NCBI GenBank assembly: GCA_964433515.1
Contig: CAYSRL010000001.1
Span: forward strand, 1 to 48,435
Source: an uncultured Ruminococcus sp.
GTDB taxonomy: Bacteria > Bacillota > Clostridia > Oscillospirales > Acutalibacteraceae
Reading direction: 5' to 3'
Length of the DNA stretch: 48,435 nt
Part shown: positions 37,261-44,949 of the stretch, piece after piece
Layout: each line of letters starts with the position of its first letter
How positions within the stretch are numbered: position 1 is the stretch's first letter
Translations under genes and position numbers: made by a program
The notes under the pieces: model-generated
Told to the model about the DNA's origin: nothing
Database searches by the model: none
The model's input: the letters and a program-made list of their open reading frames with translations, nothing else

Positions 37261-38183
37261 GCGTGAATCAAAAATTGACCGTTTCCCCGCATATCCACAG
37301 CGGTCACTCCACCTCCCGCATTATGCTGGACGTGCTGATCGCCCTGCTCCCCGCCACGGTAGCGGGCGTGGTCATCTTCGGTCTGCGCAGCCTGCTGGTG
37401 GTGGGTATCTGCGTAGCCTCCTGTGTGGGGTTGGAGGCGCTGTTTAACTACATTACCAAAAAGGACCAGACGGTAGGCGACCTGTCCGCCGCCGTCACCG
37501 GTCTGCTGTTGGGTCTGAATCTGCCCGCCAACATCCCGCTGTGGCAGTGTGTCATCGGCTCGGTGTTCGCCATCGTGGTGGTCAAGTGCCTGTTTGGCGG
37601 TATCGGCCAGAACGTGGTCAACCCCGCCATCACCGCCCGGGTGTTTATGCTGGTGGCCTTTGGCTCTATGGCCCAGGCGGCCCACCCCGTCATCACCCCC
37701 GACACCGTGGCGGGCGCCACCCCTCTGGCCGCCGAGCAAATGCCCTCTCTTCTGGATCTGTTTCTGGGTCTGCACGGCGGCGCCATCGGCGAGACCTGCG
37801 CCGCCGCCCTGCTGTTGGGCGGTGTGTATCTGCTGATCCGCCGGGTCATCTCCTGGCACATCCCGGTGGTCTACATCGGCACCGTGTTTGCCTTCTCCTT
37901 CCTGATGGAGGGCTTTGACCCCACCCGGGCGCTGGCGCTGAGCCTGTCCGGCGGTCTGTTTATCGGCGCTTTCTTTATGGCCACCGATTACGTCACCTCT
38001 CCCCCCACCCCTTGGGGCAAGGTCATCTACGCTCTGGGTTGTGGTCTGCTGACCGGTCTTATCCGGTATTTTGGCTCCTATCCGGAGGGCGTATCCTTTG
38101 CCATTCTGTTTATGAACATTCTGACCCCCTATATCAGCAAATGGACCCAGCATAAGGTCTTCGGAGCGGGAGGTGCGAAATGA
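37257..38183 (+). CDS. rnfD: Rnf complex subunit D
   Basis: 308 aa from MSVNQKLTVSPHIHSG. ATGA overlap with rnfC. The flavinylation context VAGATPLA is present. The track ORF includes an upstream in-frame extension inside rnfC. Confidence 0.92.
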   Translation: MSVNQKLTVSPHIHSGHSTSRIMLDVLIALLPATVAGVVIFGLRSLLVVGICVASCVGLEALFNYITKKDQTVGDLSAAVTGLLLGLNLPANIPLWQCVIGSVFAIVVVKCLFGGIGQNVVNPAITARVFMLVAFGSMAQAAHPVITPDTVAGATPLAAEQMPSLLDLFLGLHGGAIGETCAAALLLGGVYLLIRRVISWHIPVVYIGTVFAFSFLMEGFDPTRALALSLSGGLFIGAFFMATDYVTSPPTPWGKVIYALGCGLLTGLIRYFGSYPEGVSFAILFMNILTPYISKWTQHKVFGAGGAK

Positions 38184-39337
38184 TGGTCAAGAACATCAAA
38201 AGCGTAGCGGTGCTGGTGGCTATCTGCGGTGTGATCGCCCTGTTGCTGGCGGGCACCAACGCCATCACCGCCCCCATCATTGAGAAAAATGCCGCCGCCG
38301 CCGCCAACGAGGCACTGCTGGTGGTGATGCCGGAGGGCACCGGGTTTGAGGCGGTGGATCTGGCCGCCTATGAACTGCCCGCCACCGTCACCGAAGCCTA
38401 TAAGGAGACTGCCGGTGCCGGTTACGTGGTCAAACTGGTGACCAAAGGCTATGGTTCCGATTTCGTGATCATGTGCGGCGTGGACGCCGAAGGCACCGTC
38501 ACCGGCGCCGTCTGCCTGTCCTCCACCGAAACCCTGGGCAAGGAAAAAGAGTACGGTCAGAACTTCACCGGCAAAAATGCCGAAGGGGTGGAGGCCACCG
38601 ACACCATTGCCGGAGCCACCCTGACCTCCCAAGCCTATAAAAACGCCGTTAAGGATGCCCTGAACGCCGCCATCATCCTGGGCGGCGGCAGTGTAGACAT
38701 CCGCACCGAGGATCAAATTTTTGCGGACAATCTGGCCGCCGCTCTGCCGGAGGGCGATGCCTTTGTCAAATGGTTCGCCACCGAGCAACTGACCGGTGTG
38801 GACGCCATCTATGTGGCGGATAACGGCGCCGGCTATGTCTGTGTCATCGGCGAGGAATTTGTGGGCGTGGATGCCGCCGGCAGATCCGACAGCACGGCCG
38901 CCGCCGATGCCGTCAACGCTCTGCAGAATTCCACTCTGGAGCAAATGGATATTGCCGACAGCGGTATCCACCAGAACATCACCAAGGCGGAAAAGACCGC
39001 TTCCGGCAACTATGTGTTTGAGATCAACGCCGCCGGCTATGGCATCAAGGGTGGCAGCCAATACCACCCCGCCTCCGGCGAATATATCCGTATCCGGGTG
39101 TCTATGACCCCCGCCGGAAAGATCATCGACTGTCTGACCCTCTCCGAGGAGGAGACCGACAACCTGGGCTCTGCCTGTGGCGAAGAGAGTTTCTACGGAC
39201 AGTTTGCCGGCAAGACCGCCGACACCCTCTCTGAGGTGGACGCCATCTCCGGCGCCACCATCACCACCAACGGCTATCTGGAGGCTATCCAGCGCTGCTT
39301 TGAGGCGGTCACCATTCTGGAAGGAGGTGCCCAGTAA
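38180..39337 (+). CDS. rnfG: Rnf complex subunit G with two tandem FMN-binding domains
   Basis: 385 aa, versus about 180-210 aa as I recall for typical RnfG. N-terminal TM segment. FMN_bind-like domain 1 ends at DTIAGATLTS (Thr147, nt 38618-38620). Domain 2 ends at VDAISGATITT (Thr360, nt 39257-39259). Confidence 0.85.
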   Translation: MMVKNIKSVAVLVAICGVIALLLAGTNAITAPIIEKNAAAAANEALLVVMPEGTGFEAVDLAAYELPATVTEAYKETAGAGYVVKLVTKGYGSDFVIMCGVDAEGTVTGAVCLSSTETLGKEKEYGQNFTGKNAEGVEATDTIAGATLTSQAYKNAVKDALNAAIILGGGSVDIRTEDQIFADNLAAALPEGDAFVKWFATEQLTGVDAIYVADNGAGYVCVIGEEFVGVDAAGRSDSTAAADAVNALQNSTLEQMDIADSGIHQNITKAEKTASGNYVFEINAAGYGIKGGSQYHPASGEYIRIRVSMTPAGKIIDCLTLSEEETDNLGSACGEESFYGQFAGKTADTLSEVDAISGATITTNGYLEAIQRCFEAVTILEGGAQ

Positions 39338-41477: not shown

Positions 41478-41873
41478 ATGAAAACAAAAAACCGTACCGC
41501 AAAACAAAAAATACGCAACGACATCCTGTTTATCGCCGCCCTGCTGTTGGTGGTGACGGTGGCGGGAGCGTGTCTGTGGCTGTTCCGGGGTGAGGGTGAC
41601 ACCGTCACCGTCACGGTGGACGGCGAGGTGTATGGGGTGTACGCTCTATCCGAGGATCGGGTGGAGGACATCCGCACCGGAGAGACCGGCCTCAACCGGC
41701 TGGTTATCCAAAACGGCGAAGCAAGCATCGAAACCGCCACCTGCCCCGACGGCATCTGCGCCGGGCACCGGCCCATCAGCCGGGAGGGAGAGAGCATCGT
41801 CTGTCTGCCCCATCGGGTGGTGGTGACCGTCACCGCCGCCCACACCGCCGACCAACCGGACATTGTGGTATAA
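41478..41873 (+). CDS. NusG domain II-containing membrane-anchored protein (DUF1312)
   Basis: 131 aa. TM anchor followed by a beta-rich domain with CPDGICAGHRPIS...IVCLPHRVVV, typical of NusG_II proteins. Starts 1 nt after the rnfB stop codon. Confidence 0.7.
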   Translation: MKTKNRTAKQKIRNDILFIAALLLVVTVAGACLWLFRGEGDTVTVTVDGEVYGVYALSEDRVEDIRTGETGLNRLVIQNGEASIETATCPDGICAGHRPISREGESIVCLPHRVVVTVTAAHTADQPDIVV

Positions 41874-41885
41874 GGAGGTCTTAGC

Positions 41886-42386
41886 GTGAAAACCAATGCA
41901 AAAAAGACCGCCTTTCTGGGCTTGTGCGTGGCGGTGGCGCTGATACTCGCCTATGTGGAGGCGCTGTTGCCCCCGCTGGTTTCTGCCGTTCCCGGCATCA
42001 AAATGGGACTGCCGAACCTGGTCATCATCTTCCTGCTGTACCGGCGGGGTGTCTGGCCGGCGGCGGCTGTGTCCCTCTGCCGGATCGTGCTGGTGACGCT
42101 GTTGTTCGGCAACACCATGGCGTTGCTGTACAGCCTGGCCGGCGGTGTGCTGAGCCTCACCGCTATGGCGGTGCTGAAACGGCTGGATTTCTTGTCCATA
42201 ACCGGGGTCAGCGTGGCCGGCGGTGTGCTCCACAACGTGGGGCAGATCCTGATGGCAATGCTGGTGCTGGGCACCGCTGAGTTGGGGTATTACCTCATTG
42301 TGCTGGCGGTGACCGGCACGGTGGCGGGGCTCTGTATCGGTCTGGGCGGTGCCCTGCTGATCCGGCGGATCCCCACCCGACTGTGA
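41886..42386 (+). CDS. Gx transporter family protein (Hpre_diP_synt_I / ECF-S-component-like)
   Basis: 166 aa with 5-6 TM segments. GTG start preceded by TAAGGAGG. The sequence (ALILAYVEALLPP..PGIKMGLPNLVII) resembles the Gx transporter/heptaprenyl-diphosphate-synthase-component-I family. Confidence 0.65.
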   Translation: MKTNAKKTAFLGLCVAVALILAYVEALLPPLVSAVPGIKMGLPNLVIIFLLYRRGVWPAAAVSLCRIVLVTLLFGNTMALLYSLAGGVLSLTAMAVLKRLDFLSITGVSVAGGVLHNVGQILMAMLVLGTAELGYYLIVLAVTGTVAGLCIGLGGALLIRRIPTRL

Positions 42387-42476
42387 AAGTGTTGACAAGC
42401 CCTTTGCTGTATGCTACAATGAAAATAGCGTAGACCCTGTATGCTATTCAAAAAATATTTGTCGAGGAGAATGACT

Positions 42477-43454
42477 ATGAAAAAGATTGTTTCCCTGTGC
42501 CTGTGTGCGGCCCTGCTGGTGTCCGCCTGTGCTCTGACCGGCTGTACTGCCGAGGCAAAGACCCTGAAATTCGGCTCGGCGGTGTATGTCTCCGACCCCA
42601 CCGCCACCGACGCCGACGGCGATGCGAACGGTACCGCCGAGGTGGACGTGACCGTGGCCGCCGTGTCTGTGGACGCCGACGGCAAGATCGTCGCCTGCGC
42701 TCTGGATACGATGCAGAGCAGCCTGTCCTATACCTCCGACGGTAAGGCTGTGGGCAACCCCGAAGCTCAGACCAAGTATGAGCAGGGTGCCGACTATGGT
42801 ATGGTCGCCTATGGCGGCGCCACCAAGGAGTGGTATGAGCAGGCCGACGCCTTTGAGGGCGTGGTTGCCGGCAAGACCCTGGACGAGGTCAAGGCTCTGA
42901 TCGTAGAAGGCTATGGCACCGAAGAGGTGCAGACCGCCGGTTGCACCATCGCCATCAGCGAGTTTGTGGGCGCCGTCGAGAAGGCCTATAATGCCGCCGC
43001 CGACTCCAACGTGACCGCCGACCACACCCTGAAGGTCACCGCCTATACCGTCCAGACCATTGAGGATGCCACCGCCGATGCGGACGGCACCAACGAGGTG
43101 GAGGTCTATGTGTATGCCGCCGCCCTGGACGCTGACAGCAAGGTCGTCGCCGGTAACAGCGACTGCGTGCCGGTTTCCTTCACCTTTGACATCACCGGTA
43201 AGTCCACCTTTGACACCACCCAGGAGATCCTGTCCAAGAAGGAGCAAGGCTCCAACTACGGTATGGTCGCCTATGGCGGCGCCGCCAAGGAGTGGTACGA
43301 GCAGGCCGCCGCTTTTGATGCCCAGTGCATCGGCAAGACCGGCGACGAGATCGCCGGCCTGATGAGCGTCGACGGCAAGGGCGTGGAAGAAGTTCAGACC
43401 GCCGGCTGCACCATCTATGTGTCCGGTTTTGTGGCTGCCGCTTCCAAAATCTAA
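42477..43454 (+). CDS. Lipoprotein made of two tandem ~150-aa repeats, each ending in an FMN_bind-like EEVQTAGCTI motif
   Basis: 325 aa from MKKIVSLCLCAALLVSACALTGC (lipobox). GAGGAG RBS. The track ORF starts 12 codons earlier. Repeat 1 spans roughly aa 28-175 and repeat 2 roughly aa 183-325. Confidence 0.8.
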   Translation: MKKIVSLCLCAALLVSACALTGCTAEAKTLKFGSAVYVSDPTATDADGDANGTAEVDVTVAAVSVDADGKIVACALDTMQSSLSYTSDGKAVGNPEAQTKYEQGADYGMVAYGGATKEWYEQADAFEGVVAGKTLDEVKALIVEGYGTEEVQTAGCTIAISEFVGAVEKAYNAAADSNVTADHTLKVTAYTVQTIEDATADADGTNEVEVYVYAAALDADSKVVAGNSDCVPVSFTFDITGKSTFDTTQEILSKKEQGSNYGMVAYGGAAKEWYEQAAAFDAQCIGKTGDEIAGLMSVDGKGVEEVQTAGCTIYVSGFVAAASKI

Positions 43455-43471
43455 ACCAAACCAACCATAAA

Positions 43472-43501
43472 AAGCGGGAGGGTCCACCTCCCGCTTTTTT
43501 G
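43472..43501 (+). terminator. Rho-independent terminator (possibly partial) between the lipoprotein gene and apbE
   Basis: GCGGGAGG-tcca-CCTCCCGC followed by TTTTTT. Confidence 0.7.
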
Positions 43502-43517
43502 CTCTGTGGGTATATCT

Positions 43518-44564
43518 ATGAGAAAACGAATGCTGGCAGGAATGATGGGGATATGCCTGTTGTTGGGATGCCTCACCGCCTGCAAACAAGAACCCGAAAA
43601 ATATTCCACGTATTCCTTCGACTTTTTTGATACCGCCACCACCATCACCGGCTATGCCGACAGCCAGGAGGAATTTGACCGGGTGGCAGAAGGTGTTAAA
43701 GCCCAATTATTGGAATACCACCGGCTCTACGACATCTATCTGCGCTATGAGGGGCTTTCCAACCTCTGCACCGTCAACGACCTGGTGGACGGGGCTCACC
43801 CCACCGTGACGGTGGACCGGCGGATCGTCGACCTGCTTGTGTATGCCAAAGAGATGCACCAAACGACCGGCGGAATGGTCAACGTGGCTATGGGCAGTGT
43901 GCTGAAACTCTGGCACGACCGCCGCACCATCGGTGCGGATGACCCCGCCAATGCCACCCTGCCGCCCATGGACAGCCTCCGGGAAGCCGCCCAGCACACG
44001 GATATCCAGGCGGTGGTCATCGACGAGGCGAACAGCACCGTCACCCTCACCGACCCGCTGATGCGGTTGGATGTGGGCGCCATCGCCAAGGGCTATGCGG
44101 TGGAGCAGGTGGCTCTGTGGATGGAACAAGAGGGATACACCGGCTATGTGCTGAACGTGGGCGGTAACGTCCGCACCGTAGGCGGAAAACCGGACGGCTC
44201 CGGATGGGCCGTGGGCATCGAGAACCCTGCCGACACCGCCGCCGATCACATCGCCACGCTGGAACTGAGCGGGATGGCGCTGGTGACCAGCGGATCCTAT
44301 CAGCGGTATTACGTGGTGGACGGTAACCGGTATCACCACATCATCCACCCGGACACCCTGATGCCCTCTGAGGGGCTTTTGTCGGTGTCGGTGGTGTGCC
44401 CCGATTCCGGGCTGGGGGATGCCCTTTCCACCGCCCTGTTCTGTTTGTCCCCCGCCGAGGGACTGGCTTTGGTAGAATCCCTGCCGGAGGTAGAGGCGCT
44501 ATGGGTGGCCGAAGACGGCACCCAAGCGGTTTCCTCCGGATGGAGCAAGTATGTGAAACAATGA
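43518..44564 (+). CDS. apbE: FAD:protein FMN transferase (ApbE/Ftp), lipoprotein
   Basis: 348 aa from MRKRMLAGMMGICLLLGCLTAC (lipobox). ApbE family segments DVGAIAKGYA and LVTSGSYQRY..HHIIHP. The track start is a GTG four codons upstream. Confidence 0.88.
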   Translation: MRKRMLAGMMGICLLLGCLTACKQEPEKYSTYSFDFFDTATTITGYADSQEEFDRVAEGVKAQLLEYHRLYDIYLRYEGLSNLCTVNDLVDGAHPTVTVDRRIVDLLVYAKEMHQTTGGMVNVAMGSVLKLWHDRRTIGADDPANATLPPMDSLREAAQHTDIQAVVIDEANSTVTLTDPLMRLDVGAIAKGYAVEQVALWMEQEGYTGYVLNVGGNVRTVGGKPDGSGWAVGIENPADTAADHIATLELSGMALVTSGSYQRYYVVDGNRYHHIIHPDTLMPSEGLLSVSVVCPDSGLGDALSTALFCLSPAEGLALVESLPEVEALWVAEDGTQAVSSGWSKYVKQ

Positions 44565-44577
44565 GGAGTGTATCGCT

Positions 44578-44949
44578 GTGTTTGATGCGTTTGTAAATCA
44601 TTATGAAAGCCTTTTGCACCAATTTGCCGAGGTGTCCGCTCTGTCGCTGGAGTTTATCGGCGTGGCCATCATCGTTATCGGATCGATCAAGGCACTGGCC
44701 CAGCTTGTGCGCCGTCTGCTCCGCCGGGAGCCCATCAACATCGTTATCGAGTTGGGCAAAACGCTGGCACTGGCGCTGGAATTCAAGATGGGTGCCGAGA
44801 TCATCAAGACGGTTATCGTCCACGACCTGACCGAATTGGCGGTGCTGGGCATCGTCATTCTCATCCGTGCCTTGCTGGCCTTCCTCATCCATTGGGAGAT
44901 CAAAATGGAGAAAAAGGACAACGAAGAGGACGAGAAAAAAGCAGATTAA
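44578..44949 (+). CDS. DUF1622 membrane protein
   Basis: 123 aa with 3-4 TM segments. IGVAIIVIGSIKAL...LALEFKMGAEIIKT is characteristic of DUF1622. GTG start. Confidence 0.65.
   Translation: MFDAFVNHYESLLHQFAEVSALSLEFIGVAIIVIGSIKALAQLVRRLLRREPINIVIELGKTLALALEFKMGAEIIKTVIVHDLTELAVLGIVILIRALLAFLIHWEIKMEKKDNEEDEKKAD

Follow-up and report, generated by a model that had tools for sequence, protein, structure and literature searches.

What does a lipoprotein do when its gene stands between a gene for a putative flavin exporter and the gene of a flavin transferase? The question is raised by a 325-amino-acid (aa) lipoprotein encoded in a 48,435-nucleotide (nt) stretch of DNA from an uncultured Ruminococcus sp. 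(contig CAYSRL010000001.1; we call the whole of this stretch the window). A preliminary description, made from the sequence, saw in this gene a recent internal duplication, each half of which ends in a conserved AGCT variant of the flavinylation motif. It proposed either a new flavinylation substrate with a non-canonical motif or a flavin- or metal-binding protein that uses the conserved Cys.

Our comparisons indicate that the lipoprotein is likely to be an outward-facing, lipid-anchored electron carrier with two flavins, and a substrate of the flavin adenine dinucleotide (FAD):protein flavin mononucleotide (FMN) transferase ApbE with a variant attachment motif. The evidence consists of an internal repeat, a remote homology to FMN_bind domains with the motif in register, the conservation pattern of that motif, and linkage to a dedicated clade of ApbE. 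In addition, the protein carries an extracytosolic signal (signal peptide and lipobox) and its gene co-localizes with apbE.

According to the mechanism that we propose, the lipoprotein would be exported and lipidated at Cys23, and FAD would be supplied outside the membrane by an EetA/EetB exporter encoded just upstream. The ApbE encoded downstream would use this FAD to attach FMN, via a phosphoester bond, to both Thr157 and Thr312, and the two domains would pack as one pseudo-symmetric unit with two flavins. Such a unit could take up electrons from a membrane donor and, like PplA in Listeria, deliver them to extracellular acceptors or reductases.

Domain identity and the AGCT motif

As the preliminary description had noted, the two halves of the protein align with an offset of 155 aa (53% identity over 131 residues, E 1e-38). 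AlphaFold2 modelled the whole lipoprotein with a predicted local distance difference test score (pLDDT) of 91.4 and a predicted template modelling score (pTM) of 0.86, and domain 1 alone with a pLDDT of 94.1. The order of elements, with three long strands, helices and a Thr directly ahead of the last helix, agrees with the minimal FMN_bind scaffold (PMC4348036).

In translation, the product starts with MKKIVSLCLCAALLVSACALTGC, that is, a signal peptide followed by the lipobox LTGC, whose Cys23 is unchanged in 51 aligned homologues. We preferred the start at 42477 to an ATG at 42441 because a GAGGAG ribosome-binding site lies ~8 nt 5′ of it and because MKK is the N-terminus of every homologue.

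Pfam and NCBIfam scans of the lipoprotein, as well as Pfam scans of its single domains, yielded no useful match, and PF04205 (FMN_bind) gave none at E values up to 1. Similarity to this family was detected through the Protein Data Bank (PDB) entry 2KZX, which is listed among the solved members of PF04205 (PMC4348036). The single lipoprotein sequence matched it with an E value of 1.2e-4 and a profile of 30 diverse family domains with an E value of 1.8e-7. In the profile alignment, 'DlaaGCTI' and the helix after it fall on 'DAISGATIKV' and its helix, and the hallmark EW(Y/F)EQA falls on EWHEQA. The matched segment of 2KZX itself scores 25.9 bits on PF04205 (cut-off 22), so that membership in FMN_bind, as far as it follows from sequence, is transitive, through 2KZX, and covers only the C-terminal 65–70 residues.

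Two further comparisons gave the same register. When the family was aligned by hhalign with 30 canonical FMN_bind domains drawn from genomes of the phylum, G-K fell on G-K and AGCT on SGAT, although the match was weak (P 1.6e-3). A hidden Markov model (HMM) of the family was also run on 593 open reading frames (ORFs) from FMN_bind loci; 11–12 of the 14 ORFs below E 10 were FMN_bind ORFs, matched in register every time on the motif and the last helix. When we searched for short relatives with a profile of a single domain, most of the hits were fragments of genes, and none carried a bridging Pfam annotation.

Each half is, by these alignments, a divergent domain of the FMN_bind superfamily. It shares with PF04205 (NqrC, RnfG and the small proteins 2KZX and 3O6U) the order of elements, the 'DxDGKI' beta-hairpin, the helix ending in G-K and the D-x-x-[S/A]-G-x-T that opens the last helix. 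It differs in falling below the Pfam threshold, in having extra segments, and in carrying Cys or Val where Ala is nearly universal.

A class of this kind has already been described. Huang, Meheust, Barquera and Light (mSystems 2024, PMC11334425) divide FMN-binding domains into the common FMN-bind1 of ~120 aa and the rarer FMN-bind2 of ~160 aa. The latter has insertions and an even copy number, pairs through its beta-sheets into a pseudo-symmetric two-flavin unit, was found by BLAST, has no InterPro entry and occurs in Firmicutes and their relatives; its exemplars are NTW96865.1 (2 domains) and WP_312031774.1 (6 domains). The family studied here shares the domain length (~150–160 aa, judging by the 155-aa offset), the absence of a Pfam entry, the Firmicutes range and the even copies: of 151 family proteins, 125 have two domains, 11 have four and 2 have six (138/151 even). 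The pair is also predicted to pack as one pseudo-symmetric unit (pTM 0.86 for the two-domain model).

The family thus fits the FMN-bind2 class, matched by description and not by alignment to the exemplars; when ten relatives were looked up in sequence clusters, the names were all 'hypothetical protein', and neither of the two exemplars was among them. PMC11334425 is silent on the Cys motif, the lipid anchor and the pairing with one ApbE clade. Hence, the idea of a new flavinylation substrate with a non-canonical motif stood in part. An ApbE substrate with a variant motif remains the best reading of the sequence, but 'new' does not apply, since FMN-bind2 has been described. The lipoprotein gene adds a member to a family of which the literature already has an outline. 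Within that family, for which we found >2500 homologues (1330 representatives of 50%-identity clusters), the gene in the window is an ordinary member.

The motif itself was described correctly: EEVQTAGCTI ends both halves (residues 149–158 and 304–313), with Thr157 and Thr312 in the indicated places. In the profile alignment to 2KZX, AGCT stands exactly at the position of the FMN_bind flavinylation motif, and A-G-A-T is indeed carried by two other proteins of the window, RnfG in its domain 1 (DTIAGATLTS) and RnfD (TVAGATPL). Compared with D-x-x-[S/T]-G-A-[S/T], the lipoprotein has the Thr and the Gly, Cys at position -1, Ala at -3 and acidic residues at -7/-8 instead of -6.

Conservation of AGCT was found at one depth and not at another. 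It is unchanged in both halves of the 120 closest homologues, whereas in distant domains the Cys varies and Thr/Ser stays. The latter count covers the 327 domains of 150 proteins, each representing a 50%-identity cluster; 315 of the domains are non-gap at the motif. Position 0 is Thr in 299 and Ser in 14 (~99% Thr/Ser), and position -1 is Cys in 239 (76%), Val in 56 (18%), Ala in 13 (4%), Thr in 4 and Ile in 2. Gly (220, 70%) and Ser (64, 20%) prevail at -2, and Ala (249), Ser (51) and Thr (11) at -3. In many distant members the sequence is A-D-L-x-[AS]-G-C-T, which puts Asp at the canonical -6. Similarly, conservation in 109 distant homologues reaches at least 90% at T157 and T312, but not at C156 and C311.

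These counts bear on the suggestion that the Cys is functional, through thiol redox, metal binding or a cysteinyl-flavin link, and that the likeness to a flavinylation motif is incidental. The invariance of AGCT in the closest homologues speaks for it, and so do the best, non-significant Foldseek matches of one domain, which were to the Fe-S scaffold IscU (E 0.012, template modelling score ~0.3). However, these matches have root-mean-square deviations of 7–10 Å and are not meaningful. Moreover, distant domains swap the Cys while the adjacent Thr stays, and Val can neither bind a metal nor form a thiol link. We therefore consider a role of Cys156 and Cys311 as metal or flavin ligands, which the preliminary description had offered as an option, highly improbable.

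With Thr at ~99% and Cys at 76%, the Thr is the constrained residue. By this pattern, the Cys at -1 is a tolerated small hydrophobic residue in the place of the canonical Ala and not a catalytic or ligand residue. In a studied ApbE substrate, a change of Ala to Val at -1, or of Gly to Ala, leaves ~50% flavinylation (PMC12052999). A Cys in the predicted attachment motif is the norm of this family, not new chemistry.

Pairing with one ApbE clade

The lipoprotein gene is tightly coupled to apbE. We found apbE directly 3′ of it in 81/81 close loci (all in gut genomes of Acutalibacteraceae and Oscillospiraceae) and in 37/40 distant ones. The family is present in 49/401 sampled genomes of the phylum (36/278 genera), and the distant sample comprises 40 loci from 39 of these 49 genomes. 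Of the three loci where apbE does not follow, one is a second copy, one lies at a contig end and one is real.

The transferases next to the lipoprotein are also related to each other. In a tree of 85 ApbE sequences (quick IQ-TREE search, support by the approximate likelihood-ratio test SH-aLRT), all 38 lipoprotein-adjacent ApbEs, including that of the window, fall into one clade (SH-aLRT 99, stem length 0.84), while ApbE paralogues from seven of the same genomes fall outside it. In genomes with several ApbEs, the lipoprotein-adjacent copy is divergent and scores 204–234 bits on PF02424, compared with 240–335 for the others. A history common to the lipoprotein and its ApbE across many families is the pattern expected of an enzyme-substrate pair.

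The clade contains just two ApbEs without the lipoprotein. One of these (locus L205, G072:C3, 4535-8843) adjoins a 499-aa protein with three I-D-G-F-T-G-A-T motifs, with EetA-, EetB- and FmnA-like genes next in line. The clade is therefore not confined to Cys-type sites.

The wider surroundings of the distant pairs vary. Rnf genes lie near the lipoprotein in just 1/40 loci. In 8/40 we observed Ndh2 with a C-terminal membrane extension, a polyprenyl synthase and a UbiA prenyltransferase, in most cases with EetA and in some with EetB. By gene content, these eight are extracellular electron transfer clusters of the Listeria type, with the lipoprotein in the place of PplA. In the 28 other distant loci with apbE, the lipoprotein-apbE pair stands alone.

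Two side observations concern the make-up of such loci. Four of them (L090, L144, L148 and L152) have two tandem copies of the two-domain lipoprotein gene before a single apbE. Another (L097) encodes, ~1 kb downstream of the pair, a 257-aa ORF with two weak canonical FMN_bind matches (G019:C1:717313-717855), and thus a second kind of flavin carrier.

The pairing with apbE could also be expected if the lipoprotein bound flavin non-covalently and acted not as an electron carrier but as an extracytosolic FAD holder or delivery chaperone between the EetA/EetB exporter and ApbE. Its gene lies exactly between those of the exporter subunit and ApbE in the window, throughout the phylum the lipoprotein gene is hardly ever parted from apbE and has a history in common with a single ApbE clade, and most distant loci lack an electron-transfer partner nearby. 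Targeted delivery of FAD to ApbE is also a speculation in PMC9973259, where free exported flavin went undetected. Nevertheless, we regard such a holder as quite unlikely. The most conserved residue of the motif is the bond-accepting Thr/Ser, which a mere carrier would not need. Furthermore, EetB is absent near most of the pairs (it is present in 4/40 distant loci), and the Listeria-type clusters contain no other PplA-like substrate, so the lipoprotein fills that place.

It is worth stressing that several results weigh against the interpretation of the lipoprotein as a flavinylated electron carrier. The Pfam FMN_bind model misses it, and weak FMN_bind matches appear in just 4/109 relatives, amid noise; the hhalign probability against canonical FMN_bind domains is only 16%. 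In the structural comparison that the preliminary description had recommended for one repeat, Foldseek searches of the PDB with the whole protein and with one domain found no significant match, and FMN_bind structures were absent from the top 50.

Additionally, we found no literature on an ApbE substrate with Cys at -1, flavin in the family is predicted, and PMC11334425 gives AlphaFold models alone for FMN-bind2. No recognizable membrane electron donor lies within ~8 kb in 28/40 distant loci. Finally, the ApbE of the window is the single copy found in the 1.5-Mb assembly and is needed for RnfG and RnfD anyway. Adjacency in the window alone is therefore weak, and the argument rests on the distant loci.

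It is conceivable, then, that a descendant of an FMN_bind ancestor has lost cofactor attachment and serves as a non-flavin lipoprotein, structural or other, kept beside apbE by inherited synteny. The departures of the motif (no Asp at -6, Ala at -3, Cys at -1) would agree with such a loss, and so would the lack of a Pfam or structural match. We judge this unlikely. Inheritance alone poorly explains synteny with apbE across many families and three wider contexts, and the strict conservation of Thr, EW(Y/F)EQ and G-K in each half argues that the site has been kept. As for the missing Asp, its change to Ala at -6 has a minor effect on flavinylation in the studied substrate (PMC12052999).

If Thr157 and Thr312 are indeed flavinylated, the definition of ApbE targets as [S/T]-G-A-[S/T] is too narrow. 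Searches by motif or by Pfam FMN_bind would then miss a family of >1300 clusters at 50% identity, present in about 1 in 8 of the 401 sampled genomes. Many gut Clostridia would possess a surface electron carrier on Rnf or on an export cluster of the Listeria type, which bears on how they dispose of reducing power. The fixed pairing with one ApbE clade would also offer a natural system for studying how the transferase recognizes its substrates.

Age of the internal duplication

The preliminary description called the duplication recent and pointed to blocks that are nearly identical in DNA. These blocks do exist: those at 42795 and 43257 (given there as ~43258) differ at 3 of 51 nt, and those at 42921 and 43386 at 3 of 30 nt. 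In a global codon alignment, the halves are 51% identical in amino acids and 64.5% in nucleotides. The same codon is used at 53 of the 72 identical aligned residues, and codon bias alone predicts between 40 (usage of eight window genes) and 47.5 (the gene's own usage). This excess is small, so the near-identical blocks largely reflect conserved protein motifs and biased codons.

In a tree built from the 218 domains of 109 distant relatives with two domains each, those of the window protein are placed apart. Domain 1 groups with first domains only, in a clade of 53 representatives of 50%-identity clusters (support 0.90), and domain 2 with second domains only, in a clade of 12. All 120 closest homologues, which are 64–99% identical, have the two-domain layout. 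Judged by codon use and the tree, the duplication in the lipoprotein is old, and the word 'recent' has to be given up.

We also considered gene conversion as the source of the near-identical blocks. Codons are shared at 21/26 positions in the blocks and 32/46 elsewhere in the repeat; because these proportions are similar and the overall excess is small, we did not adopt this explanation for the window gene. Elsewhere in the family, the two domains of one protein are sisters in 29/109 relatives (including P0199, P0154 and P0167), and the pair in P0199 is 89% identical. This points to re-duplication or homogenization of the halves by gene conversion in some other lineages, without the same in the lineage of the window.

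Gene neighbourhood and known electron-transfer systems

Table 1. Features of the lipoprotein gene and its surroundings, in window coordinates
Feature	Coordinates	Strand	Description
RnfG	38180..39337	+	385 aa, two canonical FMN_bind domains; candidate electron donor to the lipoprotein (putative role)
EetA-like membrane protein	41478..41873	+	NusG_II domain, PF07009, E 1.2e-26
EetB homologue	41886..42386	+	PF07456, E 9.5e-33; substrate-binding subunit of energy-coupling factor (ECF)-type FAD exporter
Promoter-like site, sigma-70-like	42392..42420	+	TTGACA, 17 nt, TACAAT, TG before -10; 11/12 consensus
Lipoprotein gene	42477..43454	+	325 aa plus stop; two divergent FMN_bind-like ('FMN-bind2'-type) domains
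Signal peptide and lipobox L-T-G-C	42477..42545	+	Sequence pattern; Cys23 is the predicted lipidation site
Domain 1	42558..43001	+	Residues 28-175; three long beta-strands, then helices; internal repeat, model, 2KZX profile match
Motif A154-G155-C156-T157	42936..42947	+	Thr157 (42945-42947) is the predicted FMN attachment site; aligns with S-G-A-T of 2KZX
Domain 2	43023..43451	+	Residues 183-325; internal repeat, model, domain tree
Motif A309-G310-C311-T312	43401..43412	+	Thr312 (43410-43412) is the predicted second FMN attachment site
Terminator-like hairpin	43469..43500	+	13-bp stem (centroid fold), then six T; gap between lipoprotein gene and apbE
ApbE (FAD:protein FMN transferase)	43518..44564	+	PF02424, E 2.7e-69; also a lipoprotein
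DUF1622 membrane protein	44578..44949	+	PF07784; follows apbE

The order of genes in the window is rnfCDGEAB, NusG_II membrane protein, PF07456 protein, lipoprotein, ApbE and DUF1622 (Table 1), in agreement with the neighbours that the preliminary description had named on either side of the lipoprotein. According to PMC9973259, PF07456 is EetB, which Listeria requires for FAD export and for flavinylation of PplA; eetB adjoins eetA in 3,328 genomes, apbE in 2,169 and Rnf genes in 572 Clostridia genomes. The NusG_II protein is probably the EetA partner of EetB, to judge by its position; that paper does not name the Pfam family of EetA.

Two signals suggest how the lipoprotein gene may be transcribed. 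The promoter-like site falls in the 90 nt that separate eetB from the lipoprotein gene and is a consensus match only; a strict form of its pattern was found in 26/70 close loci. The hairpin has a centroid energy of -22.7 kcal/mol (z = -4.7 against shuffled sequences), and a hairpin with a T-run occupies the same gap in 53/81 close loci; the consensus scan that gave the promoter-like site did not list it. Taken together, these elements suggest a separate, perhaps highly expressed lipoprotein transcript with limited read-through into apbE. Such an arrangement would suit an abundant substrate and a scarce enzyme.

The closest known counterpart is PplA of Listeria monocytogenes, a lipoprotein with two FMN-binding domains whose flavinylation depends on EetB, FmnA and the ApbE homologue FmnB (PMC9973259). 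Both proteins are lipoproteins with two flavin-domain repeats and an adjacent transferase gene. They differ in that ours has no PF04205 match, and hence not two canonical PF04205 domains, and carries A-G-C-T; furthermore, the cluster in the window is attached to Rnf and not to Ndh2 and demethylmenaquinone genes. By this comparison, the lipoprotein is a positional and probably a functional analogue of PplA, not a demonstrated orthologue.

The window can also be compared with the Clostridia Rnf operons that carry eetB and apbE. The order rnfCDGEAB, eetA-like gene, eetB and apbE at the operon end is the same, while the available part of PMC9973259 mentions neither a lipoprotein flanked by eetB and apbE nor a two-domain RnfG.

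In the genome of the window, the electron donor is most plausibly Rnf, acting through its two-domain RnfG. Among 121 genomes of the order, such an RnfG was found only in that of the window and in G449, where rnfG is followed ~3 kb downstream, on the same contig, by the lipoprotein gene. The remaining 59 RnfG matches in these genomes are shorter, and nearly all span the first domain only. In the close loci that include an RnfG, it has two domains in 67/69, although the genomes concerned are kin, so that this is the trait of one clade and not independent replication.

As a tentative extension, which we put forward with some doubt, this clade of gut Clostridia may possess an Rnf with an outward branch. 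The two-domain RnfG and the two-flavin lipoprotein would form a four-flavin chain that carries electrons from ferredoxin or reduced nicotinamide adenine dinucleotide (NADH) to outside acceptors without quinones, served by an ApbE lineage of its own, adapted to G-C-T or S-V-T attachment sites, which escape the usual motif searches. If that reading of the ApbE lineage is true, covalent flavoproteins are under-counted in Firmicutes. What is new here is the phylum-wide count of the pairing, the single ApbE clade, the Listeria-type clusters with the lipoprotein instead of PplA, and the link to a two-domain RnfG.

The DUF1622 gene follows apbE in 61/81 close loci and in 0/40 distant ones. Outside the window, contig C28 of the genome (5540-6466, minus strand) encodes a second RnfD/NqrB-like protein, 33% identical to the RnfD of the window, which may be a further ApbE substrate.

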